Source of the DNA: Oligoflexus sp.
GTDB lineage: Bacteria; Bdellovibrionota_B; Oligoflexia; Oligoflexales; Oligoflexaceae
NCBI GenBank assembly: GCA_041736305.1
Contig: JBGSTX010000233.1
Coordinates: forward strand, 1 to 32,554
Direction: 5' to 3'
DNA: 32,554 nt
A program made the translations under genes and the position numbers. Under the pieces are notes generated by a model. It had not been told where the DNA came from. It searched no databases and saw only the letters and a program-made list of their open reading frames with translations. This document shows positions 4,478 to 16,899 of the stretch, piece by piece. Numbering within the stretch: position 1 is the first letter of the stretch; each line of letters starts with the position of its first letter.

Positions 4478-6052
4478 TTAATCTTTCACGAGTACTGTGA
4501 TTTTGACGCCATCGCAGTCGATTTTGCGGAAGTTCCTTTCCCAAATATTGTTGCTCTTTGGGGAAATCGTACAAACGCTTTTTGTTGCGATAAGGGTTCG
4601 TAGAGATGCTATATCAGCACCTACTGAGATTACGGCTGCATTGTAGCTGGTACTGAGGGCTTCAACAGTACCATAGAGAGACGTCAAGCGCGCATCGAGA
4701 CCTGCAACATCACCTTTAGTATTGGTCAGTTCGATGCCGATCGCATCAAGAGCTACCCTTACTGAGTCGATCTGGGCATTAACAGCGGCGATAGCGTCCG
4801 ATAGAGCTGCTGCGCTGCTGCTGATGATTTCAGCCATTTCGCCGTTCAAAGTCTCAACTTCGGCATCGATGCGAGCATTGAGGTCAGATTTCAAAGTCTC
4901 CATGTCCTGTGCAAGGGCGCTATTGTCCTGAACAAATTTCTCGTTGAGGGTGTTCTGGGCGGCTTTGAATTCTTCGAAAGCACTTACTAGAAGATCGTGG
5001 TCTGTGCGCAGATCCGCAGTAGCAGTCTCTAGGTTCACGATACGACCTACTAGGGCCTGATCGACTCCTTCAAGCTGAGCTAGGCGACTTTGAAGATTGG
5101 CATTGAGAGACGCGATCTTGTTTTTGAGAAAGTTCAAGTTGGCTTTATCAGCAGCGTCCAGCTTCTTGATAGCAATCTTGAGGTCGGCTATCTGACCTTG
5201 AACATGAATGGCTGCCAAAACACTCGCAAAGATCACTTGGTTGACTTTACCGTCAAGGCGGCTGATTTCCTGAATCGTCAGATCCATGTTTGCCTGGTCG
5301 GCAGCGCTAAGAGTAGCAACTTCAGCGTCGAGCTTGCTTTGCAGAGCAGCGATCTGGCTGGCAGCTGCTTCAGCTACGGCTGCGTCATTGCTAAGAAGTT
5401 CTTGGCGAAGCATACACATCTTCTGAACGATACCACTGATCTTCTCAGCCATTTCCGAAGAGAGACCCGCGATTTGAGTTGTTAGCGATTCGTTAAGTGC
5501 CGCGATGTTGGCGTTGAGTTGATCGAGATTCGTCTGATCAGCAGCTGCTAGAACGGCCAGTTGTGCATTGAGCTCGTTCTCTAGACGAACTAGTTCGGCT
5601 TCATTCAAAGAAATCCGGTCCATTTGAGCACTTAGATCGAGGTCCAGCTTGGCTAGATGTGCTGCCTGCTCGCTGCTCTTAGCTTCGAGTATAAAGAGGC
5701 GCTTCTCGTGCAAAGAGAGCGTGTCTGCATGAATCTTGGCAGCTGTTTCGCTGAGGCCTAAGCGGATAAGTATATCGCCGATTTTCTTATCGACGATAAT
5801 TTTGTTTTCGTTGTCTTTAGCTTCGCCTTTGTCAGTCTTAGCTTCAAGATTCTTGAGTTTATCATGAAGGATTTCGTCAGCTGACTTCGTCTGGGCCATC
5901 GCATCAGCACTGGTATAGTCGGACGCGAGGGATACAGATTCATTAGAAGAGCAGCCTTCGAGAGCGCAAGTAAGAGGCTTGCTACAGGCTGAAAGAACGG
6001 TAAACGCTGTTAACAAGCCGAAGGTAGATGCGTACAAACGAGTGGATCTCAT
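4478..6052 (-). CDS. Long coiled-coil lipoprotein with internal repeats
   Basis: Lipobox VLSAC; about 400 aa of Ala/Leu-rich heptads; repeated L-x-AAD-(Q/K)-x-N; C-terminal Cys pair. Confidence 0.75.
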   Translation of the reverse strand: MRSTRLYASTFGLLTAFTVLSACSKPLTCALEGCSSNESVSLASDYTSADAMAQTKSADEILHDKLKNLEAKTDKGEAKDNENKIIVDKKIGDILIRLGLSETAAKIHADTLSLHEKRLFILEAKSSEQAAHLAKLDLDLSAQMDRISLNEAELVRLENELNAQLAVLAAADQTNLDQLNANIAALNESLTTQIAGLSSEMAEKISGIVQKMCMLRQELLSNDAAVAEAAASQIAALQSKLDAEVATLSAADQANMDLTIQEISRLDGKVNQVIFASVLAAIHVQGQIADLKIAIKKLDAADKANLNFLKNKIASLNANLQSRLAQLEGVDQALVGRIVNLETATADLRTDHDLLVSAFEEFKAAQNTLNEKFVQDNSALAQDMETLKSDLNARIDAEVETLNGEMAEIISSSAAALSDAIAAVNAQIDSVRVALDAIGIELTNTKGDVAGLDARLTSLYGTVEALSTSYNAAVISVGADIASLRTLIATKSVCTISPKSNNIWERNFRKIDCDGVKITVLVKD

Positions 6053-6885: not shown

Positions 6886-7445
6886 ACTCAGTCTCCCGAA
6901 CGTAAAAATTAAACCAGCAGCCCCGTCATATATTACCCCGGGTTAAGGGGTCCTGGAGCGCCGGGATAGCCTGATTGAAAGGCCCATTATTGATTCAGCC
7001 TCCCGCCTTGCCAAGCCTAAAATGAGTTTTTCGATCTTATCCTGCCAAGCCTTGGGGCCCAGGTCTCCGGGCTTGCTGGCAAAGAACGACGCGGTCTAAG
7101 CTAAGCACTTTGATGGACTTAGCGGTGAACTATAAGCTTGCGCTAGATCTATCCTGATCATTTCTCTCTTTGTAAGAGCGTCTATACATCTGAAAATCCC
7201 GTCCGATAATAAAGACATTTTTTCAACGAGAAAGTTTCCTTCACAGCACGCTTCTAAAAGAAAATTTTAGGCGCTCGGGTCGAGCCTTATCTATTTGCTA
7301 TAGCACAGCAAAGATAAATAAATTCGTAAGATCTTAAGGCCTATAGCGGCTGCTTTATCTTCTTGAAACTTGAGTATCATGCCGCGAAAGCTCAATATCG
7401 ATACTCCGACTAAGCGGTAACAAATCCATCAACACAGGATTGTCT

Positions 7446-9263
7446 ATGCACAAATTCGGGTCATTCAGCGGCCTAGGAGGTTTCGCTGCGCTTCAGATTG
7501 CCTTCCTCATTGGGATCTCCATTTACACCCCAACTCCTGTCCAAGCAGCTCCCGCGACGATGGCGAGTCCCCGCTTAGAATTGAGTGAAAGCGAAGAGCT
7601 GCCGCCTACCCCAGCCTGGATTTCGAAGGTCGCTCGCAAACTGCGCAACGGGGCGGGTCTCTCATGGAACGATGATTTGGATGCCCTCTTGAAGATGAAG
7701 CGAGCCGAGGTTGTGGACTTTTTTATGAAAGACCAGCGATTCATCGATACAGTGCTCGACTTCAATCTCTATTTTCTCGGTTTCAAGCCCACTCAGATTC
7801 TAAGTACTGGGCCCGAGCGTTATCATGTGAGCGCGTATATGTTTCCGCAGGCGATTACCGCTGCCAAGGCAGTGGCCTCCGGCGGCGATTACCTGAAACT
7901 CTTTGATCTTCGCCAACCCAATTACCTCGCGCCTTTCAGCGAACCGCCCATCCCTCCTGGCATTGGTGATGGGCAGAACCAGAGTTTGAGTCGAGAGGAA
8001 AAGCGCGCCCTACTGAGTAAAAGCGTTGGGGGGAGCATCGAAAGAATCAGAAGCGCTTTCGGCAGCGGACCTGCCTTCAATAAGGATGAGGGCTGCCGAG
8101 CATTCATCAGCGGTGAGACCTTTCAATTCCTCTTCCCTGCTAGCTCATCTCTCTCGGGTCAGCCGTCGAACGATCCTGGCTTGAATCAATTTGCCACGCG
8201 CTTGTTCAGTGCCTGTACCTCGAGCTTCCTGGGCGAAGAATTCATCATCGAAAGCCTCGATAGCTTCCAGAAAAGCGTCTTCGGGCTCAGTGAGATTATT
8301 TCGATTTTTGACGATCGTAACTACCAAATCAATTCAGTTTCAGACATCCGTAGCGTCGACGGCGCCGAGAAAAGCGGACTTGGCAATGATTTCTGGGCCC
8401 TTAGAACTAACTCTTCGACCAACTTCAACCGTAAAAGAGCTGCTGCCATCCTGAAGACCTATTTCTGTGACGATCTCACTCCTATCAACATCGTACCCAC
8501 CGATGTGCACGGGTCTGACCAGCACGGCAGTGATCCTTCATGTCAAGCCTGCCACTACAAACTCGATCCCATGGCTGGCTTCTTCCGCAATCAGGGTCTC
8601 GCGGGGATCGGCTTTGATCATAAGGAGACTTTGGTTTTCGACGATCTTGCCGCCGCAAGCGGGCCTAGCTATGAGGCTTATCTGGATTCCTGGAAAAACC
8701 CCGAGAGAACGAGTTGGAACGTTGGCTATATCCGCTCGCTCCGTGAGCCTAGCCTCAATAGCTACGAGCTCAATCATGATGCGCCCCTCGACGAACTCTT
8801 CCGCATCATTCGCGAGGCTCCTGAAGTCAGGCAATGTCTCGCTAAACGCATGAGCGAATTTTTTGTCAGTAAGGACCAGGTATTTGACGGAGCTTTTATG
8901 GAGGGTCTCAGTGCCTCCTTCAGCCATCCGAGCCAGAGTTCAGCAGATGGCTTTAAGCAGGTCGTGAAGACTCTGATTCTCAGTAAGACCTTCTCGATGG
9001 ACAATCCTAATCCCAAGCTTTGCTACGATCCGCCTGGTACCGAGAGCAAAGGCGCACTTTGCGAAGTGTCTTTCATCATAGAGAATCGTTGCTCATCATG
9101 CCACGCCGAAGGTTTCAATATCAGCGATGTGCGGGTGCAGGACAAGATGCTCGACCGACTACAATCTACTGATCCCGATCGCCGCATGCCTTTGCGCATG
9201 GATATGCCCGATACAGAGCGCGTGGCGCTTATCAAGTGGCTGAGTCAGGATTCACAACCTTAA
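7446..9263 (+). CDS. Secreted protein with two CxxCH heme-binding motifs (DUF1501-associated cytochrome c-like)
   Basis: Signal peptide; CQACHYKLDP and CSSCH; C-terminal RRMP (possible axial Met); NFNRKRAAAILKTYFCDDL. Confidence 0.7.
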   Translation: MHKFGSFSGLGGFAALQIAFLIGISIYTPTPVQAAPATMASPRLELSESEELPPTPAWISKVARKLRNGAGLSWNDDLDALLKMKRAEVVDFFMKDQRFIDTVLDFNLYFLGFKPTQILSTGPERYHVSAYMFPQAITAAKAVASGGDYLKLFDLRQPNYLAPFSEPPIPPGIGDGQNQSLSREEKRALLSKSVGGSIERIRSAFGSGPAFNKDEGCRAFISGETFQFLFPASSSLSGQPSNDPGLNQFATRLFSACTSSFLGEEFIIESLDSFQKSVFGLSEIISIFDDRNYQINSVSDIRSVDGAEKSGLGNDFWALRTNSSTNFNRKRAAAILKTYFCDDLTPINIVPTDVHGSDQHGSDPSCQACHYKLDPMAGFFRNQGLAGIGFDHKETLVFDDLAAASGPSYEAYLDSWKNPERTSWNVGYIRSLREPSLNSYELNHDAPLDELFRIIREAPEVRQCLAKRMSEFFVSKDQVFDGAFMEGLSASFSHPSQSSADGFKQVVKTLILSKTFSMDNPNPKLCYDPPGTESKGALCEVSFIIENRCSSCHAEGFNISDVRVQDKMLDRLQSTDPDRRMPLRMDMPDTERVALIKWLSQDSQP

Positions 9264-9274
9264 AGGGATTGACC

Positions 9275-9928
9275 ATGAAAGAGAAGATGCGAAACCTCCT
9301 AGTCTTATGCGCCCTCGTGAGCGCCTGCTCTCCTAGCGATGAAGTCTCACAGCTAAACGCGGGAGGTACCCGAATCGGTTACTACAAAGGAGTTGATGCC
9401 GTAAGCAGCCAAATGCGGGCGCTCATGATAGACCCAGCTGATGCGGATCAATTTAGTTTCCGCCGGCTTGTCGATGGGAATGTAGCCGGCGCTGACAAGC
9501 TTTCCAACCTGCTTGGTAGCTTTACCAGTGGAACCGGCGAAGAGTCGATGCAGAACGATAGCCCCAATGGCCTCAATGTTATGCTCTGGAAGCTTAATCT
9601 CTTGAAGTTTGGCGAGTTGCTGGCTGGCGTGTGCGAGCATCCTAGCTCGACGAGCATCACCGTCAATCGGAAGGAGGTCAAGCTCCATCCTCGCTTCGCG
9701 CCTATTCTTCTTGAGATTTGCGAAGCAGACGAGGCCAGTCTCGTGAGCTCGGCTGAAGATCTCTGGACTGGAACTATGGGTTGGGATGCACCTGAATCCG
9801 AAGTCGAAGCCTGGCGCGCCTTTGTCGATAGTGAGGCTGAGACTCTACTGGCCATGCCTGCGAGCGAGCGCGTCGAGACGCTGCTCATGGCGATTTTCTT
9901 CAATCCCTATTATCTCCTTGAATCCTAA
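9275..9928 (+). CDS. Hypothetical lipoprotein
   Basis: MKEKMRNLLVLCALVSAC lipobox; C-terminus AIFFNPYYLL; 11 nt after the upstream stop. Confidence 0.7.
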   Translation: MKEKMRNLLVLCALVSACSPSDEVSQLNAGGTRIGYYKGVDAVSSQMRALMIDPADADQFSFRRLVDGNVAGADKLSNLLGSFTSGTGEESMQNDSPNGLNVMLWKLNLLKFGELLAGVCEHPSSTSITVNRKEVKLHPRFAPILLEICEADEASLVSSAEDLWTGTMGWDAPESEVEAWRAFVDSEAETLLAMPASERVETLLMAIFFNPYYLLES

Positions 9929-9951
9929 ACATTGCTGTGGAGCCTTCAATT

Positions 9952-11343
9952 ATGGCAATCTCACGACGCTCTTTGCTGCAGGCTGGTAGCGGTAGTCTCC
10001 TGCTGACTCCGGGCCTCCTTGCACAGAAATCGCAGGCTGCGGTGCTCGATCGCACGGAGCCGCATTTCTTTCTGGAAATATTCATCTCCGGTGGTTGGGA
10101 TGTTTCCTATCTTTTCGACGCCAGGCCTCTGGCGATGACGGAAGCTGGAAAAATTCAGAACTATGTAGGTATTGAGCCCGAGCGCTGGACCGATAGCGAA
10201 GGTCGCAGCACCTGGGTTGGGCCCAGTGCTCTGGCACTGAAAAAGCATTTTGACTCATTTTCTATTCTCAACGGCGTGCATATGGCGAGTACCTTTCAGG
10301 GGCACGATCAGAATGCGCTCTATGCACTGACTGGAAATCCTTTCGGCGGCGATACGAATCTGGCTCAGTTAGGGCGCTCGCAAAGCCCTCTCGACTTTCT
10401 CCAGCAGGGTAGCGTCCTGGGGTCTAATTCTATTCGCAACAAGGGCAAGGCGATCACGCTCACACCCGAGAATGCTTTGCAGCTGACGGCCTCCGTGCAA
10501 GGCGGTCGCCAGAAGAGGTCGCTGGGTACGCTGATCGATGGCTATGTGGCAGCTCGACTGGAGGCCAATGGAGCGAGTCGACCGGCCAGCGGGCATTTTG
10601 CGGATGGTGCTTTCAAGATGCGGGAAGGTCTCAAAGGCAGCGATGACATCGAGCGGAGCCTCAGTGGGATCAAGCTGAAACTGGAGGATCATACACCTAT
10701 CCATCGCAATATGCAGGTAGCCTCAGAATACTTTCGTGCGGGATTGACCCGCTCGGCGGTCATCTTTCTCAATCCGCGCATCGACGCTCACGATAGTGGC
10801 ACTGCCAAGAATCTACCGAAGGCGTTGAGCGAAATCGTTGCCCAGCTTGCCGAGGTTTTTGACTTCCTGAAAAGCTGTGCGCCCGTATCTAACGCGAATC
10901 AGAGCCTGCTCGATGAGACGACGGTTTTAATCGGTTCAGAATTTGCGCGTACTATGCGGCAGCCCGGGCTGCCTCTCAGCAATACAGGGACGGATCATAA
11001 TCCGCTCAATAATAGTGTGATTCTGGGTGGGAAAGGTATCAGACCCGGTCTGATCGTTGGAGCTTCCGATTTCCGCTCCGCTGACGAGGTATTATCAGGG
11101 GCGCACCTGGCGATGGATCCAGCCCAGCTCAGCATGATGGGCATGCCCTTTGACCATGATGTTTTGGGGCCTCCGTCTTCATATAAGGCTGAGAATTTCC
11201 CTAGTTTTAAGGTCGATAACTACCTTAATTTTGCTGCGATCGCCAATACGCTTTTTACTCTCTTTGAGGTGGAGCCTAGCCTCTTCTGGACTAATGAGCG
11301 GAATGGACCTCCGGTTCGGGCTATTCGGAAGATACTTAGCTAG
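9952..11343 (+). CDS. DUF1501 family protein with Tat signal
   Basis: SRRSLL twin-arginine motif; FFLEIFISGGWD, IDAHD, LLDETTVLIGSEFART, GTDHNP, ILGGKGIRPG. Confidence 0.85.
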   Translation: MAISRRSLLQAGSGSLLLTPGLLAQKSQAAVLDRTEPHFFLEIFISGGWDVSYLFDARPLAMTEAGKIQNYVGIEPERWTDSEGRSTWVGPSALALKKHFDSFSILNGVHMASTFQGHDQNALYALTGNPFGGDTNLAQLGRSQSPLDFLQQGSVLGSNSIRNKGKAITLTPENALQLTASVQGGRQKRSLGTLIDGYVAARLEANGASRPASGHFADGAFKMREGLKGSDDIERSLSGIKLKLEDHTPIHRNMQVASEYFRAGLTRSAVIFLNPRIDAHDSGTAKNLPKALSEIVAQLAEVFDFLKSCAPVSNANQSLLDETTVLIGSEFARTMRQPGLPLSNTGTDHNPLNNSVILGGKGIRPGLIVGASDFRSADEVLSGAHLAMDPAQLSMMGMPFDHDVLGPPSSYKAENFPSFKVDNYLNFAAIANTLFTLFEVEPSLFWTNERNGPPVRAIRKILS

Positions 11344-11388: not shown

Positions 11389-11409
11389 TCCTATACCCAT
11401 CGCTTAAAT

Positions 11410-11835
11410 CTATTTTGAAAAGATTGAATTTAAGAGCTTTAGGTAGTCGCGCTTTGCAGTAGTTGAATAATTCGAGTTTTCTAGGGTCGATTTAGCCTTG
11501 GAAAAAGCGTCGTCGCTAGATTTTAATTTTTCATGCTGTGCATTTTCAAGTGAATCAATCGAATATAACGCACGCACGACCGTGTTCGCATCTGGAGAGC
11601 ATAGTATCTTTAACAGGATATTAAACGAATCTTGGGATTGGCTTTCATCGAGAATCTGGGCGCATCGAGCTTTCCATTCCTCTGACTTTTGAGACAGGGC
11701 CAAATCAAGAGCAGCCCAGTCACCAGCATTGAATTTTTCAACAATAGAACGCATATTGTCGCTCTCGACATCTTCCCAGTAGTTGATGTCTCTTATATTA
11801 TTTAGTGCTTGGTCAATCGCTTGAAAATTCTTCAT
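11410..11835 (-). CDS. Putative immunity protein (small, helical, HEAT-like) for the upstream toxin
   Basis: ATG 11835 is 7 nt after the toxin stop, with GAGG overlapping the TGA; no signal peptide; about 40% GC in hand-counted lines. Confidence 0.75.
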   Translation of the reverse strand: MKNFQAIDQALNNIRDINYWEDVESDNMRSIVEKFNAGDWAALDLALSQKSEEWKARCAQILDESQSQDSFNILLKILCSPDANTVVRALYSIDSLENAQHEKLKSSDDAFSKAKSTLENSNYSTTAKRDYLKLLNSIFSK

Positions 11836-11842
11836 GATCGCC

Positions 11843-14029
11843 TCACAAAAGTTCAAATTTGTCTGGTAATATTCCGGACCCGCCTGTTGGATATACCGAC
11901 GTGATTTTATCCCCAGTACGCATCACAATTACTTCCACGCCATCGATATTGACCCTTTGAAGTTCGGATACAATCCCATTATCAGTTCTTCTAGCGATGG
12001 TTTTCGAACCTGCAACTATTCGCCCAGCGTTTATAATTTTTTCATCTGACCATTTTTGAGGAAACAGTACAGTTTCTTTAGGGACAGACCAATTGCCGTT
12101 TTCTAAAGCCTTTCTAACTTGGCAGCTTATAGTTCCATCTGGGTTGCTCACTATTTTTTCTACCTGAAATAACTCACTATTTATAATAGAAGGAGAATGC
12201 ACACCAATAATCTGCTTCTTGTTACGAGGCTTCGGAGCCCCCCTCAGGATCTTCTCGCTAAGCTCAGGGCTTATCTCGGGCATTCCTTTCGCCAGAGCTC
12301 GGAAATCATCCGCCTTATTCAGCAGCTTCTGTTCAAAGGCTTCTTCTGCGAGCTTCGCTAAGCGTTCTATTCGCTGTGCCGATCGTACCGACATAGCAGT
12401 GTGGGCAGCATCGACCATCCGTTTCAGAAACTTTACGCCCCCGGTGAGTTTATCAACTGCCCAAGCACCCAGTGGCCCACCGGCGAAAATACTTCCTGCT
12501 TCGATCAGTAGACTTGCTGCCGCTATACTTCTATCGACTTCATCATTAGCCTGGCCGCTGCAAAAGTCTAGCTCGTAGTAGAGCTCGTAGAAGTCAGCGT
12601 AGGATCCAGCAGCCCAGTTTTTAGACAGGCAGGCAGCAGCACTCGGCGCCGCCTCTATAAATGCGGTAGCTCCAAGCATCAACTTGTCCAGAAAGGCAAG
12701 TTCCTCTTCATTTTGAGCTGCTTTATACATTTCAGCAATCGTTGCTGCCGCTTTGATATGCATCACCAAACCTTCGACGCTGGACAGCTGATTGATAGCA
12801 GCTTTGAGCCTCTTGGCCGCCTCAGGTCGCTGGTTGGCGAAGTCGCCATCAATCGCAGTGGTCACACTGGGCTCAAGCTGAAGATCGGTAAACCAGAGAT
12901 CTCGCGTGATGATCCCAGGACGATTCTGCTCCAAGCTGCCGAATATATACTCATTGACATGGTGTACAGAGCTTTCAAAAGCATTAAGCTCAGCTTTCGA
13001 CAAGTCGGATCGAGCTTGAATCAAACGAAGGAGCCCGTCTACGCGCTCCTGCCACTGCAAAGCCCTTAGAATAAGCTGTTGGCGAGAACCTAGCTCGAGA
13101 TCAGCCTTCATCGCCGAGACCGCCTGATCGGCCCATTCTTGATAGGGATAGGTGCCCAAGTCCTCGGTCCCGACCAGCGAGGCAAATGGCTCAAGAGACG
13201 GCAGGGCCCCATCTATTGCCAGCAGGTCTTCACCCCGGAGATCGAAGCCTTGTGCTCTTGCAGTAGCCTCAAGCTGCGATTTGGCCTCTGCTGTCGCCTG
13301 TTTAAGATCTTCGGTCTTCTGAAGCAGTTCTGATCGCTTGAGATCGATTCCCTTCTTTTGAAAATTATAGCGCTCGCTTGCTTCTTGAAAGCGAACCAGA
13401 CTATCAAGGCTTATCTCAAAGAAGTTCTTCCCTCTGACACCATTTAGGGCAGCTTCGTAGTCGAGATCATTCTGTGCAAAGCTCAGCTCTTCGCCCTGCG
13501 CCTGGTTGGCAAGCCCCAAGATCTCATTCCGCCTCTGTTCAGCCTGGGCCGCTAGCTCGGGAGCTAAAGAAGCTAAATCCGTCTCTAAGCTCCTTACCAT
13601 CGACCAGCTGCGAACAGTGGGATGAGCCTGATAAGTGGCGGTTCCAATGAGCGGGCTAGTGCCATTTGGTAAAAAAATATTGACCCATACCATCAGCCAG
13701 CCTTCGGAAATAGTCACGTTCTGGTCGAGATAGAACCTGAAATCGATCCTATTGAGCCCGAGATTGAAGTCCTGTGGCCTCGCACAACCACGCGAGACAG
13801 ACCAGACGGGCTTGCCGTTGGCATCGTATTCTGTCTTCCGGAGAGCGGTGTGAAGGAAATCTACCGTCGACCTACCATTGACTGTTATGAACTTCTGAGG
13901 CCCTGGGATTTGCATAGCCGATGGTCCCACACCGGCATTGGCTTGCCAACTAACTTCAAAACAAACATCGCTCACTGCACTTGCCAACTCAGCATGAAGT
14001 AGACAAAGGAGAAGCAGGAGGTATCTCAT
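11843..14029 (-). CDS. Polymorphic toxin: Sec signal, helical body, pre-toxin-TG-like linker, C-terminal bacterial EndoU-type RNase
   Basis: MRYLLLLLCLLHAELASA; DFYELYYELDFCSGQANDEVDRSIAA; tip IIGVHSP...NPDGT...KETVLFPQKWSDEKII...IDGVEV...ITSVYPTGG. Confidence 0.78.
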   Translation of the reverse strand: MRYLLLLLCLLHAELASAVSDVCFEVSWQANAGVGPSAMQIPGPQKFITVNGRSTVDFLHTALRKTEYDANGKPVWSVSRGCARPQDFNLGLNRIDFRFYLDQNVTISEGWLMVWVNIFLPNGTSPLIGTATYQAHPTVRSWSMVRSLETDLASLAPELAAQAEQRRNEILGLANQAQGEELSFAQNDLDYEAALNGVRGKNFFEISLDSLVRFQEASERYNFQKKGIDLKRSELLQKTEDLKQATAEAKSQLEATARAQGFDLRGEDLLAIDGALPSLEPFASLVGTEDLGTYPYQEWADQAVSAMKADLELGSRQQLILRALQWQERVDGLLRLIQARSDLSKAELNAFESSVHHVNEYIFGSLEQNRPGIITRDLWFTDLQLEPSVTTAIDGDFANQRPEAAKRLKAAINQLSSVEGLVMHIKAAATIAEMYKAAQNEEELAFLDKLMLGATAFIEAAPSAAACLSKNWAAGSYADFYELYYELDFCSGQANDEVDRSIAAASLLIEAGSIFAGGPLGAWAVDKLTGGVKFLKRMVDAAHTAMSVRSAQRIERLAKLAEEAFEQKLLNKADDFRALAKGMPEISPELSEKILRGAPKPRNKKQIIGVHSPSIINSELFQVEKIVSNPDGTISCQVRKALENGNWSVPKETVLFPQKWSDEKIINAGRIVAGSKTIARRTDNGIVSELQRVNIDGVEVIVMRTGDKITSVYPTGGSGILPDKFELL

Positions 14030-15276
14030 GGGAACACCTCTAGCAGCAGTTGATCGTAAAGTACGGTGGCTCTGGCTACGTCGTTCTTAGCGAGCGAGTC
14101 TTGAATACTGTCAACCCGAGAACTTTGATTCGGCGCCTTGGCCAAAACCATATTGAGACCTAGCTTCATGTTCGACGGCATCTGCTTGATCGAATTCCTC
14201 GCCGCATCGAGCTTCTGCACAGCGAAGCTGCATCCTTCAGTCATCCAGGTATCCTTTGTTTTTATCTCTGTTTCACAGATTGCGGCAAACTGGATAAAGG
14301 CAGTCATGGCCTGATACTTTTTTGCAAAGAGAGCTAATCCCTTCTGCGAAGCCTTGCTGTCGACGAAAGATTTTTTGATAGCAGCATTTATCTGAGCTAG
14401 AAACTCTGAGGCAGACTGGAGGTGCCGAGCTTCGTTCATGATCGCTTGAGTCTTATTATTGACATAGAGTTCGATGAGCGTGTGCGTTGCTATGCGGATA
14501 CGGTCAGCGAGCTCCTTGTGGCGTTCGCGTAAAAGCTGGCTGGCGGACACCAAGTTCTTCTCTCCGCGAATTACAAGCTGAAGATAGTCAGCTGGATCCA
14601 GCGCTAAATTTCCGTAGCCTCTCGCCTCGAGAAATTGACTGTGAGACTGGACTGCGACACGATAAGCATCCGTAAAATACTGAATTTCACCTCGTACCAG
14701 CTGGACTCTGCTGGAAGCTGCGGCCATATAATTCGATTGCTCGACAGCTAGTCGATCTAGCTGCACTTCAAGGCGCTGCAGTTCCACGCGATCTTCAGGG
14801 CGCGATGAGCTACTAGCAGCGTTTATCTCAATAGACATCTCTTTGTAGCGTTCGCCATAGATCCGGATGCGAGGCTTAAGCACCTCTTCAAAATCAGCTA
14901 CAAATTCAACAAGCCGCTTCCCTAGCTCAGTAAAGCGAGCCTGATTTTCACGATTGATTCTTTGCATCTCGGTCAAATGATACTGAACTTGACTAAGATC
15001 TTCATCGATCTCCAAACCCTCTTCATTTGCAGATCTATCGATAGAATCGAGGAGAGCCTGGCGTTTGATTTTCAAGTGCCTATCCATTTGAGTCCTACAG
15101 CTCTGAAAAAGCGCAATCTTGCGATCGAGGCATCTGATGTACTCACCGACCGTTGAGCCTTCTGGACATTGGACCTCCCTCGCCTGAGCGCAGGCCGCAG
15201 TGGGAGAAGCAACAGTGAGCCCACTATTGCCAAGTAGTAAGTAAGAAAGGACAAGGAAAGATAGCCAGCTCCTCAT
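14026..15276 (-). CDS. Secreted alpha-helical/coiled-coil hypothetical protein (toxin operon)
   Basis: Signal peptide; four N-terminal Cys plus a later Cys pair; 4-nt overlaps with both neighbours. Confidence 0.75.
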   Translation of the reverse strand: MRSWLSFLVLSYLLLGNSGLTVASPTAACAQAREVQCPEGSTVGEYIRCLDRKIALFQSCRTQMDRHLKIKRQALLDSIDRSANEEGLEIDEDLSQVQYHLTEMQRINRENQARFTELGKRLVEFVADFEEVLKPRIRIYGERYKEMSIEINAASSSSRPEDRVELQRLEVQLDRLAVEQSNYMAAASSRVQLVRGEIQYFTDAYRVAVQSHSQFLEARGYGNLALDPADYLQLVIRGEKNLVSASQLLRERHKELADRIRIATHTLIELYVNNKTQAIMNEARHLQSASEFLAQINAAIKKSFVDSKASQKGLALFAKKYQAMTAFIQFAAICETEIKTKDTWMTEGCSFAVQKLDAARNSIKQMPSNMKLGLNMVLAKAPNQSSRVDSIQDSLAKNDVARATVLYDQLLLEVFP

Positions 15277-16205
15277 GGGGTGGAGCCTCCGGCAAGCTGC
15301 GCTTCCAGGGTGCTCATCCTATTTCGAATAGTCTCGATTTCAAGCCGAGCTATTTTAATGGTTTCTTCAGCTTCTTCATAAAAGGCGGCATCTTCACCCA
15401 ATTTACTGAGCGTCGCAATCGATCCCGCTGAGAGGCGGTCCATCAGGGTCACAGGCCCTTCTCTCGCTGGCAGCTCGCTTAGCAGGGATCGAAGCTGCAT
15501 AATAAGCAGACGCTCCTCAAGCGTTAAGCTGAGGCTCGTATCGCTGCTCAGTCTAAAAAGGATATCGCAGTCATCACCCTGCTTGCAGCTACTCAACTCT
15601 CTACTTAGCTCAAGTACCTCCTCGCTCTGCTTCATATCGGCATCGAGGCTCTCAGAGAGATTTTTAAAGAACTTATATGCAGGCATGATAAGAGTCACCT
15701 GCTCGAGGGATGTGATCAAAGCCAGCTTACTGCTGAGTAGGGCCTCAAGTCCATTCAGTTCTGTTTGCCAGACGCTGCGTACGCGTGAGCTGGGAATAGC
15801 TCGAATTTCCGTGAAACTCAGTTGGCAGTCGAGAAATGAACGATTGGCCAACTCCTTCGGGAAGCTATCGACTAAACTTAAAGGACCTTGGCCGGTTCCA
15901 ACTAAGACCTGGTTTTGGACATCGTGAAAATTGAGAGTAAACGGTGCTCCGGTATCAAGCTGGAGCTGTATTTTTGAGGCCTGTGGGCCACTGTATCTAC
16001 GGTCGCAAGTCATCTTGTAGGAGACATAGAATTCGGACTCTATATTTTGCCGGGGGATGAGCTCTAGTCTCTCGGGTAGCTTGCAGTATCTCTGAAACCC
16101 GTTGACGACATCGCACATTATAATGTTGCGGCTTAGAATTGTCTCCGCAGAGGCGATCGAACTAACAAATAGAATTCCACTAACAATAGTACGCAATGCA
16201 TTCAT
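15273..16205 (-). CDS. Secreted hypothetical protein with a beta-rich N-terminal domain and coiled-coil C-terminus (toxin operon)
   Basis: ATG 16205 after AAGGAGA; MNALRTIVSGILFVSSIASA signal; six Cys; heptad-rich C-terminus. Confidence 0.75.
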   Translation of the reverse strand: MNALRTIVSGILFVSSIASAETILSRNIIMCDVVNGFQRYCKLPERLELIPRQNIESEFYVSYKMTCDRRYSGPQASKIQLQLDTGAPFTLNFHDVQNQVLVGTGQGPLSLVDSFPKELANRSFLDCQLSFTEIRAIPSSRVRSVWQTELNGLEALLSSKLALITSLEQVTLIMPAYKFFKNLSESLDADMKQSEEVLELSRELSSCKQGDDCDILFRLSSDTSLSLTLEERLLIMQLRSLLSELPAREGPVTLMDRLSAGSIATLSKLGEDAAFYEEAEETIKIARLEIETIRNRMSTLEAQLAGGSTP

Positions 16206-16227
16206 CAACTTAGTCTCCTTTTTTGAT

Positions 16228-16899
16228 TTAGTTTTTCCAGAGTTTGTCGACCACGAGTTCATGAACAACTATCGTACCTTCACCGCCTTCCAGTCCTTGA
16301 ATGCGAGCTTCGAAATTCTCGATAGCTCCATCACACTCTAGTTCAGGAAGGTCTATGAAGGCGTGGTCTAAATGATGTACATTTTCAAAGCGTTTTTGGT
16401 AGTGGACTTGCGTGCCAGCATGGGTACTGATCTCGACCATGAAGGACGTTGGAAACGTTCTCCATGCTTTACCTTTACACGTGCTGCCTTGAAAAAGACC
16501 CTTGCTCTTCTTGCCTGTGCAGTACTCTTCTCCATCAGGCGTCCAGTTCATGCTGAGCAAGATGCTGGATTTTATCACCGAAGGGTTACCATCGAGACTT
16601 TCATAAGGTCCGTAAAGCAGAAACCCAGCGCTGGCACGCCCTCTATAGACTATGTCGTCGCCTTCAATTTGACCAAGTTGGGAGGCAAGTTGGCTTCCAA
16701 GGAAAATTTTACGCTCTGTCTCGGTCCAGAGTTCATCGGGGAGAACAAGGCTGGCAAAATTATCGAAGTTCAAGATAGGGGTATTGGTATTACGTATTCC
16801 AGCCTCACCGCGTACAAAGCATGCTGCTTGCGAAAGGCTGGTAAACAAAAAGGAGCTTAACGAAAGACCAATTGCCAAGTGCGATGGAAGCTTTCTCAT
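16228..16899 (-). CDS. Secreted beta-rich hypothetical protein (first gene of toxin operon)
   Basis: Signal peptide ending SQA; GFLLYGPY; four Cys; RBS AGGA. Confidence 0.72.
   Translation of the reverse strand: MRKLPSHLAIGLSLSSFLFTSLSQAACFVRGEAGIRNTNTPILNFDNFASLVLPDELWTETERKIFLGSQLASQLGQIEGDDIVYRGRASAGFLLYGPYESLDGNPSVIKSSILLSMNWTPDGEEYCTGKKSKGLFQGSTCKGKAWRTFPTSFMVEISTHAGTQVHYQKRFENVHHLDHAFIDLPELECDGAIENFEARIQGLEGGEGTIVVHELVVDKLWKN

Follow-up and report, generated by a model that had tools for sequence, protein, structure and literature searches.

Polymorphic toxins that depend on Sec, have an N-terminal domain specific to their lineage and are accompanied by a co-conserved secreted partner encoded upstream are a known kind, MAFB-N/MAFA being an example in the survey of Zhang et al. 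(PMC3482391); for this reason the five-gene cassette (g1 to g5) of Oligoflexus sp. described here is not the new kind of system that an earlier note on this DNA had proposed. The nearest known kinds are MafA/MafB, S8-PTS and the umbrella toxins. The MafA/MafB/MafI modules of Neisseria, placed by Zhang et al. in 2012 in the 'T2SS/Sec-dependent' class, share with the cassette a diderm host. As described in that survey (PMC3482391), MafB, like the toxin g4, carries a signal peptide and combines a conserved N-terminal region, specific to its lineage, with a C-terminal tip that is polymorphic; the survey's table enters EndoU for MafB-N toxins. Both modules have a co-conserved secreted partner gene upstream and the immunity gene directly downstream. 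The accounts cited give no dedicated secretion machine for the Maf modules (PMC3482391, PMC4287609), and the cassette is similar in this respect. The differences are that g4 has no Pfam match to MAFB-N/DUF1020, its scaffold consisting of a beta-sandwich, long helices and a PT-TG segment; that the cassette has two core partners without a lipobox, as against one partner in Maf; and that the g4 family occurs in Oligoflexia, Bdellovibrionia and Myxococcota, whereas Maf is confined to one genus.

In the Streptomyces umbrella (Umb) system, several Sec/TAT-exported proteins are reported to come together extracytoplasmically on a long coiled-coil toxin (PMC11062931), an assembly that is putative for the cassette. 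By the same account, Umb and the cassette share co-encoded exported proteins and a coiled-coil polymorphic toxin whose tip can be exchanged and whose immunity gene is linked to it; an association of PT-TG with ALF toxins has also been reported (PMC13483458). The cassette differs in its diderm host and in that Pfam detected neither ALF repeats nor a lectin or trypsin-like partner. The likeness to S8-PTS (BetaH, Gram-positive) is by description only (PMC9424270): a signal-peptide toxin with a beta-rich, putatively receptor-binding N-terminal domain and many tips, accompanied by a conserved partner gene and an immunity gene. As described there, however, the partner is an S8 peptidase, the hosts are monoderm, and BetaH is about 120 aa long and has no long helical scaffold or PT-TG.

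The myxobacterial SitBAI modules, in the description given in PMC5562445, resemble the cassette in their overlapping upstream accessory gene with a type I signal sequence, polymorphic nuclease tip, downstream immunity gene and Deltaproteobacteria-type hosts. All SitA proteins are said there to carry a lipobox, which neither g4 nor its relative P0034 from Corallococcus has; for SitB a beta-barrel is predicted, in contrast to the all-helical model of g3, and the authors report having found no SitA homologues beyond Myxococcales. Colicins and S-type pyocins are also soluble toxins of modular build, in which a cytotoxic part is combined with a binding part and a scaffold, each toxin having its cognate immunity gene, and the Colicin-DNase and Colicin_D tips are common to them and the g4 family. 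Colicins differ in having no co-conserved secreted partners and no signal peptide, being released by lysis proteins according to PMC11062931.

Gene layout and secreted proteins

The window, that is, the whole stretch of 32,554 nt that was analysed, contains at 11410-16899 five co-oriented genes, all called as ORFs on the (-) strand and separated, from g1 to g5, by a 22-nt gap, two 4-nt overlaps (g2/g3 and g3/g4) and a 7-nt gap, which is the arrangement given in the earlier note. They encode a putative secreted accessory protein of 223 aa (g1, 16228..16899), two putative secreted core partners of 310 aa (g2, 15273..16205) and 416 aa (g3, 14026..15276), a modular toxin of 728 aa (g4, 11843..14029) and a cytoplasmic, putative immunity protein of 141 aa counted from ATG (g5, 11410..11835). 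The longest ORF of g2 begins at a TTG at 16268; its ATG, adopted here, has AAGGAG 8 nt upstream, and g2 homologues lie upstream of g3.

Signal peptides of g1 to g4 were judged from the sequence and the Kyte-Doolittle (KD) profile. All four N-termini resemble signal peptides in that a basic residue is followed by a hydrophobic stretch and then by an A-x-A-type end, and their KD peaks are 1.36-1.84 at residues 4-8; no N-terminal hydrophobic stretch of this kind is present in the g5 profile. The sequences of g1 to g3 contain no lipobox, nor does g4, whose signal peptide (residues 1-18, 13976..14029; KD peak 1.84 at residue 4) is of type I. The mature parts of g1, g2, g3 and g4 contain 4, 6, 6 and 5 cysteines, and across 12 loci C29, C49, C60 and C349 of g3 and C490 of g4 are invariant, C334 of g3 and C23 and C82 of g4 nearly so. 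The signal peptides and cysteines noted earlier in the first four products, and the small cytoplasmic product of the fifth gene, agree with these data. The same can be said of the missing scaffolds: Pfam and NCBIfam found no FHA, YD, PAAR, VgrG, LXG or WXG domain in the locus, and no TpsB-type gene was present among the ten flanking genes scanned.

Neither the partners nor the g4 scaffold gave a Pfam, NCBIfam or specific solved-fold match. In g2, which matched no family in Pfam or NCBIfam, a Cys-containing N-terminal region is followed by a helical/coiled-coil C-terminal region, for which comparison with PDB profiles gave nothing beyond weak matches to coiled coils (residues 260-311). The AlphaFold2 model of g3 (pLDDT 83) is an elongated bundle made almost wholly of long helices (43-155, 162-217 and 229-303), for which structure searches returned no specific fold match; an Umb1 chain appeared among the Foldseek rows at chance level (E 1.4). 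The model of g4 residues 1-540, of moderate confidence (pLDDT 65.5), begins with an eight-stranded beta-sandwich (residues 22-150, 13580..13966), followed by helices. The long helical or coiled-coil regions noted earlier in g2 to g4 agree with the C-terminal region of g2 and the predicted models of g3 and g4.

The beta-sandwich is the variable part of the scaffold, many family representatives matching the profile only from about residue 170 onward, and it may be a target-binding domain. The helical scaffold (residues 151-465, 12635..13579) is the conserved core of the family, with W326 and F380 invariant in the alignment; its residues 151-263 form a long helical hairpin whose structural matches are generic only, the colicin E2 R-domain (Z 9.4, rmsd 3.7, 112 aligned) and colicin Ia (Z 8.8) among them. 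The PT-TG-like pre-toxin segment (residues 466-535, 12425..12634) contains a C467...C490 loop with a hydrophobic stretch on either side, one at residues 502-520 (KD 1.52), as noted earlier, and a second at 450-468. The PT-TG-like linker proposed for this place is upheld by relatives, in which the aligned segment is PT-TG by Pfam in 38 of the 99 family representatives scanned and in 6 distant loci, but not by g4 itself, which has no Pfam PT-TG match at E<=1.

Conservation of the unit and variation of its tip

A search of 131 genomes of the phylum found the unit formed by g2, g3, g4 and a small downstream ORF at 21 loci in 13 of them. Immediately downstream of g3 comes the g4 scaffold at 20 of the 21, the exception stopping at a contig end, and immediately upstream of g3 comes g2 at 19; the loci belong to five families of the class and have otherwise unrelated flanks. 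The two partners and the g4 scaffold are passed on together, as a single translationally coupled unit. The first gene behaves differently: it has no family in Pfam, NCBIfam, PADLOC or PHROGs, and its homologues adjoin the cassette at five of the 21 loci, all of one genus (its own locus, L011, L013, on the opposite strand, L018 and L058), other lineages having different upstream genes. It is a genus-level accessory and no core part, which reduces the three secreted partners of the earlier note to two.

A profile of the g4 scaffold recovered 156 representatives (129 at E<=1e-10) among 1.84 billion proteins, and the taxonomically named members (5 of 30 clusters looked up) belong to Oligoflexia, Bdellovibrionia and the myxobacterium Corallococcus. 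Genomes with two cassettes (G007, G008 and G018) keep two diverged partner sets, with identities of 0.21-0.31 for the scaffold and 0.14-0.28 for g3. The pairwise identities of g4 and g3 correlate (Spearman 0.74), which is expected from shared descent and is therefore no sign of interaction. A separate paralogous cassette, on contig C56, includes a trypsin-like coiled-coil partner.

The tip of g4 (residues 591-715, 11885..12259) matches Pfam EndoU_bacteria (PF14436, E 2.4e-11, 44.5 bits against a cut-off of 25.3), so that its identification as EndoU-like stands. The G-x-H and K-x-T motifs are kept in seven related tips; the second catalytic histidine, described for eukaryotic EndoU in the table of Zhang et al. 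(PMC3482391), could not be identified in the seven aligned tips, and RNase activity is for this reason not assured. The GC content is 0.51-0.54 in the scaffold but falls to 0.40-0.42 where the tip and the immunity protein are encoded, which points to a recent exchange of the tip. The C-terminal tails of 100 family representatives fell into 43 BLAST clusters, and a Pfam scan of 99 representatives gave WHH (10), Colicin-DNase (7), EndoU (4), RES (2) and one each of PT-HINT, Tox-REase-3, Ntox30, Colicin_D, CdiA_C, Ribonuclease and YwqJ-deaminase; the named types include deaminase and barnase. EndoU, Ntox10 and a Peptidase_C39-like domain occur among the tips of 11 related loci.

For g5 no family (Pfam, NCBIfam) and no relative was found. 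Its position is occupied in related cassettes by Barstar, CdiI_4 and Imm8, with weak matches to Imm35 and WapI, and the downstream ORFs co-vary with the tip, being alike among L011, L052 and L054 and between L017 and L018, which have similar tips, and not in others. From its position, g5 is probably the cognate immunity protein. Gene order is kept while tip and immunity gene vary, as the earlier note had anticipated.

Assembly, export and delivery

The locus is indeed a polymorphic toxin-immunity cassette that is Sec-dependent and has two core partners, and g4 is modular, joining a signal peptide, beta-sandwich, helical scaffold, PT-TG-type segment and exchangeable C-terminal toxin, here of the EndoU RNase type. 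Complex prediction with g4 145-540 and g3 25-416 scored 0.54, against 0.00 for the best of three controls, and was rated 'weak support', in a band that is more often wrong than right unless the pairing is likely beforehand: of 80 solved complexes 58 attained this mark, as did 2 of 110 mismatched pairs, and scores of 0.60 or under comprised only 7 of the 80 and both passing mismatches. At least 69% of contacts agreed between runs, with a partner pLDDT of at least 80, and two representatives (P0069 and P0092), which may be gene-calling artefacts, have a g3-like region N-terminal to the scaffold. The prediction hints that g3 may bind the helical scaffold, and it is for this pair that the proposed extracytoplasmic assembly of partners and toxin gains slight support. 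The genome, 92.7% complete, has a GspG-type pseudopilin and three secretins; TssC and TadE were not found in it, and the cassette has no linked gene for an outer-membrane exporter of its own.

We consider it somewhat probable that the locus encodes a lineage-specific, Sec-dependent system of polymorphic toxin and immunity protein that works as follows. The products of g1 to g4 would cross the inner membrane via Sec and form disulfides in the periplasm; g1 would be a genus-specific accessory, and the helical scaffold of g4 would be bound by g3 and probably also by g2. The complex would leave the cell by a secretin-type pathway and attach to a target cell through the beta-sandwich; the PT-TG loop, together with the hydrophobic stretches on its two sides, may aid passage of the tip through the target envelope. 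The RNase tip would then cleave RNA in competitors without g5, which would neutralise any toxin in the producer's cytoplasm.

It is conceivable, though doubtful, that g2 and g3 are periplasmic chaperones, export adaptors or surface anchors that do not accompany the toxin to its target. Lap proteins play such a role for LXG toxins. The g2-g3-g4 synteny serves this explanation equally well, and it has a precedent in the co-conserved upstream secreted partner of a Sec-dependent polymorphic toxin, MafA having been proposed by Zhang et al. to act on MafB in export competence or surface holding (PMC3482391); the SitB accessory is described as helping SitA and not being strictly required (PMC5562445), and neither a hydrophobic domain nor a recognisable binding domain is present in mature g3. 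Against it stand the lack of a lipobox in g1 to g3 and the large size of g2 and g3 with their conserved disulfide cysteines, unlike small chaperones; the present evidence does not separate it from the delivered complex.

That the cassette supplies effectors of a contact-dependent or predatory apparatus, either a secretin-based Tad/Kil-like machine or one resembling outer-membrane exchange, instead of a diffusible toxin, appears unlikely. Its members in Oligoflexia, Bdellovibrionia and Corallococcus overlap the lineages with the reported Kil apparatus, whose toxin is described as still undiscovered (PMC8460266), and the paralogous PT-TG toxins of the same genome are lipobox proteins. However, none of the genes linked to the cassette belongs to such an apparatus, TadE was not found in this genome, which is 92.7% complete, the signal peptides of g4 and Corallococcus P0034 are of type I without the lipobox of SitA, and the immunity gene points to conflict with kin or competitors rather than killing of prey.

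The analogy with alpha-pore-forming toxins drawn in the earlier note, in which g2, g3 and g4 would form a ClyA/Hbl/YaxAB-like translocon whose pore passes the RNase through the target membrane, fared poorly and is very improbable. It is suggested by the elongated helical bundles of the models, the hydrophobic stretches around the g4 PT-TG loop and the presence of the ClyA pore among the g3 structural matches (Z 10.6, rmsd 7.6, 189 aligned). This match, however, is generic, being at rank 34, level with dozens of other helical bundles that are unrelated, and below a meaningful level for helical proteins, and Foldseek gave none at E<=0.001. The g2, g3 and g4 scaffold sequences have no mutual profile similarity, whereas the components of tripartite alpha-pore-forming toxins are paralogues, and mature g3 lacks a hydrophobic stretch of KD>=1.0. 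Finally, that g1 to g3 are chance neighbours of an ordinary Sec-exported toxin is hardly tenable: g1 is not conserved beyond one genus and the partners have no known function, but chance adjacency of g2 and g3 is contradicted by the synteny counts (19-20 of 21 loci in five families with otherwise unrelated flanks).

The preferred reading remains that of a lineage-specific Sec-dependent toxin-immunity cassette. Its scaffold matches no described trafficking domain and its two helpers match no known fold; the cassette is of a type known in outline, and not yet described in this form.

Gene arrangement and the g2-g3-g4 unit

The source assembly comprises 5.0 Mb in 392 contigs, one of which is the entire window. 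The cassette consists of five open reading frames on the minus strand, g1 (16228-16899, 223 aa), g2 (15273-16205, 310 aa counted from an ATG preceded by AAGGAG), g3 (14026-15276, 416 aa), the toxin gene g4 (11843-14029, 728 aa) and g5 (11410-11835, 141 aa). The 22-nt gap, the two 4-nt overlaps and the 7-nt gap described in the earlier note were all found. The putative signal peptides that it had assigned to the first four genes agree with the N-termini of g1-g4, which, read by eye from the sequence, start with a basic residue followed by a hydrophobic stretch and an end of the A-x-A type; g5 lacks this pattern. The sole Pfam domain across the five proteins was EndoU_bacteria, at residues 591-715 of g4, and comparison with NCBIfam, PADLOC and PHROGs gave no family match for any of them. 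Promoter and terminator scans at the locus gave scores no better than those of shuffled sequences, no meaningful repeats were found, and no RNA run was listed that contains the locus. A word-index search retrieved one relative for g4, three for g3 and none for g5, and the related-locus search retrieved none with g4 alone as the query and one locus with a three-sequence alignment. No usable match for g3 or for residues 20-470 of g4 was obtained from the protein atlas, and the PDB sequence searches with the cassette proteins returned only low-complexity coiled-coil matches.

A search of 41 related genomes with residues 1-570 of g4 located the scaffold in 12 of them, and a profile search of 131 genomes of the phylum detected g3 in 13, from five families of one class. 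The DNA around the matches, in which ORFs were called and labelled with profiles built iteratively from g1-g4, contained a g4-type scaffold gene directly 3' of g3 in 20 of the 21 g3 loci; at the single remaining locus the contig ends 0.8 kb past g3. A g2-type gene lies directly 5' of g3 on the same strand in 19/21 loci, the exceptions being locus L014, in which the g2-like gene sits downstream, and locus L024, in which a g2-like region is found inside a 517-aa protein on the opposite strand. The flanks of the cassettes were otherwise unrelated between loci. Homologues of g1 occurred in only five of the 21 loci, all of one genus, and its position in other lineages is occupied by different secreted proteins, either of a 209-225-aa family or of a 252-279-aa family together with a 349-449-aa family. 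Therefore, of the three secreted partners proposed in the earlier note, g2 and g3 stand as the core (19-20 of 21 loci) and g1 does not. Genomes with two cassettes hold two diverged copies of all of g2, g3 and g4, and therefore the unit duplicates and moves whole. The presence of two obligatory secreted partners of unknown fold is firmly supported.

Decayed cassettes, in which g3 is split or interrupted by a TAA stop or g4 is broken up into two ORFs, were observed at the related loci L055 (G104:C115), L053, L056 and L057 (G044); the genome G044 alone carries four cassettes. A trio of genes, encoding a secreted protein of 607 or 445 aa, a protein of about 230 aa and a DUF1501 protein with a Tat-like signal, adjoins the toxin cassette in the window (7440-11343, plus strand), and a similar one adjoins a paralogous toxin at locus L001 on contig C294 of the same genome (10524-13980, plus strand), a recurrence that may reflect a common gene family. 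The only Pfam match of a 524-aa protein of the window (4478-6052, minus strand) was a sub-threshold one to Baculo_PEP_C, which looks like an effect of coiled-coil composition; the same weak match was seen in two representatives of the scaffold family.

Exchangeable tips and immunity genes

The alignment of 12 g4 homologues showed that the similarity extends from the beta-rich N-terminus through the helical region to a Cys-x(n)-Cys segment and no further, the tips differing among the 11 related loci. The Pfam names obtained were EndoU (the window, the family representative P0002 and locus L011), Ntox10 (L015) and Peptidase_C39-like (L020), and seven of ten tips received no Pfam name. When the scaffold profile (alignment A1) was searched against 1.84 billion protein representatives, the family was found to comprise 156 proteins at E<=0.001, 129 at E<=1e-10 and 36 at E<=1e-30. 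The tail set, 100 of 151 family proteins reaching the scaffold end with at least 60 residues after it, fell into 43 BLAST clusters, 27 of them singletons. The Pfam scan covered 99 of the 100 tail representatives and assigned PT-TG to 38 of these 99, WHH to 10, Colicin-DNase to seven, EndoU to four, RES to two, and PT-HINT, Tox-REase-3, Ntox30, Colicin_D, CdiA_C, Ribonuclease and YwqJ-deaminase to one each; at least 11 named toxin families are represented. A conserved N-terminal region is combined with alternative, unrelated C-terminal toxin domains, which is how Zhang et al. (2012) recognize a polymorphic toxin. The test proposed in the earlier note gave a positive result, the order g2-g3-g4 being kept while the tip and the downstream immunity ORF vary.

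Names were looked up for 30 family representatives and were borne by five clusters: Bdellovibrio bacteriovorus (P0041, 1172 aa, with an N-terminal extension of 470 aa), a Bdellovibrionia MAG (annotated 'pre-toxin TG domain-containing protein'), Pseudobdellovibrionaceae / Bdellovibrio sp., an Oligoflexia MAG and Corallococcus coralloides DSM 2259 (COCOR_02975, P0034). The signal peptide of the Corallococcus protein is of type I, without a lipobox. Neither g2 nor g3 resembled the 470-aa extension of P0041 in profile comparisons. Long forms of 1024-1214 aa (P0041, P0080, P0091, P0096, P0098, P0099 and P0137), the named ones coming from Bdellovibrio and Pseudobdellovibrionaceae, carry the whole scaffold from near residue 430-510 onwards, behind an N-terminal extension without a Pfam family.

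The EndoU-like tip perceived earlier in g4 was matched by PF14436 over residues 591-715 (E 2.4e-11, 44.5 bits against a cut-off of 25.3), with coverage of profile positions 5-128 of 129, and its assignment to the EndoU type is firmly supported. The histidine of a G-x-H motif and a K-x-T motif are kept in seven aligned EndoU-type tips, among which no second conserved histidine was seen. The catalytic residues of EndoU 2c1w are given as two His plus Ser/Thr pairs in the table of Zhang et al. (2012; PMC3482391); a search by sequence found no solved relative onto which these residues could be mapped. The pre-toxin-TG-like linker preceding the tip holds through the relatives of g4, since the aligned segment scores as PT-TG in the 38 of 99 family representatives and in distant loci and is thus homologous to PT-TG; g4 itself gave no Pfam match to PT-TG (PF14449) at E<=1, and the nominal TG is replaced in it.

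The GC content is 0.51-0.54 in the rest of g4 and 0.40-0.42 over the tip and g5 (window 11400-12300), which fits a recently exchanged tip-immunity module. Among related loci the ORFs 3' of the toxins vary together with the tips: L011, L052 and L054, all with EndoU-type tips, have a common downstream family, L017 and L018 likewise, and the downstream ORFs of other locus pairs gave no match. The barnase-type tip on contig C294 is followed by an ORF that Pfam names Barstar, the EndoU tip of L011 by CdiI_4 and the tip on contig C56 by Imm8; further matches of downstream ORFs, to Imm35 and WapI-like, were weak. No family and no relative was found for g5, whose position suggests an immunity protein. 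A gene directly 3' of the toxin that changes with the tip is what Zhang et al. (2012) describe for immunity genes. The reading of the locus as a predicted Sec-dependent, lineage-specific polymorphic toxin-immunity cassette is firmly supported.

Two paralogous PT-TG toxins of 684 and 674 aa, with a lipobox-like LIAC signal end, are encoded elsewhere in the genome, at C294:6239-8293 (L001) and C56:16567-18591 (L002). Their residues 1-608 are 90% identical, beyond which they diverge: one ends in a Ribonuclease domain of the barnase type, with a Barstar gene behind it, and the other in a tip without a name, with an Imm8 gene behind it. They match g4 only at residues 356-513, and partners of the g2 or g3 type are absent. 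A second class of PT-TG cassette, with its own upstream secreted partners, was observed at L002:9370-11571 (on C56), L021:10032-13698 and L023:4594-8047. Three partner families are common to L021 and L023, and one of them includes a 733-aa protein on C56 that combines coiled coils with a trypsin-like domain, which recalls the trypsin-like UmbA of umbrella toxins.

Predicted structures, the pore analogy and partner binding

The model of g3 (pLDDT 83) contains very long predicted helices at residues 43-155, 162-217 and 229-303 and a smaller helical end, and that of g4 1-540 (pLDDT 65.5) a predicted eight-strand beta-sandwich (22-150) followed by helices. The earlier note had likened the partners to multi-component alpha-pore-forming toxins and proposed a Foldseek comparison with ClyA, Hbl and YaxAB; Foldseek against the PDB returned nothing at E<=0.001 for either model. 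A wide structural search with g3 gave only generic three-helix and spectrin-like bundles, among which ClyA (6mrt_A, Z 10.6, rmsd 7.6, 189 aligned) ranked 34. The structural matches of g4 were confined to the hairpin 151-263 and were all generic, colicin receptor-binding hairpins included.

The components of tripartite and ClyA-family alpha-pore-forming toxins are paralogues of one helical fold, and these toxins have a hydrophobic head or beta-tongue. The profiles of g2, g3 and the g4 scaffold gave hhalign probabilities of 29.9%, 1.4% and 0.2% over 15-19 columns, that is, no similarity, and no 19-residue window of mature g3 reaches a KD of 1.0; g2 has one hydrophobic window (KD 1.32). The ClyA/Hbl-type multi-component pore was dropped because of this absence of similarity among the components and of a hydrophobic segment in g3, and the analogy of the earlier note falls with it. 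The hydrophobic stretches of g4, at 450-468 and 502-520, flank the conserved Cys loop of the PT-TG region, and this region might itself insert into a membrane.

A complex of g4 145-540 with g3 25-416, predicted from 12-row alignments made for the purpose, obtained the mark 'weak support' with a score of 0.54 against 0.00 for the best control. Of 80 solved complexes 58 reach this mark, as do two of 110 mismatched pairs; only 7 of these 80 do so at 0.60 or under, together with both mismatches that passed. The contacts agree between runs to at least 69%, and the partner pLDDT is at least 80. In the family representatives P0069 and P0092, which may be miscalled genes, a g3-like region is N-terminal to the scaffold. 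Gene linkage makes binding of the partners to the toxin likely. Beyond this putative binding, we infer that a particle is assembled, by which route it is exported, what it targets and how it enters.

Export and relation to described toxin systems

The genome contains a GspG-type pseudopilin and three secretin genes. Searches of this genome (92.7% complete) for TssC (PF05943) and TadE were negative, and no exporter is linked to the cassette. Export would probably proceed by a secretin-type route; a link to a Tad/Kil-like machine is an idea only.

Most polymorphic toxins of diderms are associated with outer-membrane exchange or with secretion of type V or type VI. The absence of FHA and YD repeats, PAAR/VgrG, LXG/WXG and TpsB, as judged earlier by inspection, was upheld by Pfam and NCBIfam. 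In contrast to type V systems, there is no TPS domain in the cassette, and neither this domain nor FHA repeats nor TpsB occur among the 10 flanking genes scanned or in the related loci. Type VI effectors are recognized by PAAR, VgrG or Rhs/YD domains, which Pfam did not detect here, nor was TssC found. Type VII toxins have an N-terminal LXG or WXG domain, no signal peptide and a monoderm host; g4 gave no LXG or WXG match and opens with a signal peptide.

The closest comparison is offered by Sec-exported toxins. Zhang et al. (2012) describe a Sec/T2SS class with lineage-specific N-terminal domains, the model case being MAFB-N with the upstream partner MafA (PMC3482391), S8-PTS (PMC9424270) and umbrella particles (PMC11062931) are Sec-exported polymorphic toxins with dedicated partners, and SitBAI (PMC5562445) has an overlapping accessory gene and a lipoprotein, SitA. 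However, MAFB-N / DUF1020 is absent from g4 (Pfam, E<=1), and whereas the upstream MafA is a lipoprotein, g1-g3 have type I-like signal peptides, no L-x-x-C lipobox and no Pfam family. SitA is likewise a lipobox lipoprotein, of hosts that carry traAB, and g4 has no lipobox. Umbrella particles possess ALF repeats, the UmbB adaptor and the trypsin-lectin UmbA, and no such domains were found in g1-g4 with a Pfam copy that may lack an ALF model; Foldseek with g3 listed an umbrella chain (8w20_A) only at E 1.4. The domains looked for were missing for Maf, CdiA, T6SS, T7SS and SitA, as were two of the three ClyA-family features. By analogy the cassette would work like the Maf, S8-PTS and umbrella kind, and it appears to be a member of none. 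No description of the g4 scaffold or its partners was found in the literature, in which supplementary tables may list members; a 2026 survey reports PT-TG toxins of diderms without a known trafficking route, and its main text mentions neither Bdellovibrio, Oligoflexus nor lipoproteins (PMC13483458).

The cassette is a concrete, testable object for the question of how PT-TG toxins of diderms are exported. Its tips are of at least 43 types, for many of which Pfam has no name, so that new toxin and immunity domains can be drawn from the family as well. Corallococcus coralloides and Bdellovibrio bacteriovorus are both cultured species, and genetics may therefore be possible. It is tempting to speculate that g2-g3-g4 form a heteromeric, Sec-exported, largely helical particle with exchangeable warheads, which among diderms would correspond to the umbrella particles of Streptomyces, a reading that we regard as possible, if somewhat unlikely. 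If the partners do assemble with the toxin, then, as far as our searches reached, a secreted toxin particle of this kind, made up of several proteins, would be a first for a Gram-negative lineage. Such a particle would be common to Oligoflexia, Bdellovibrionia and Myxococcota, would represent a new trafficking class that explains part of the diderm 'PT-TG toxin' proteins, and could be an undiscovered secreted killing factor of predatory or social lineages.
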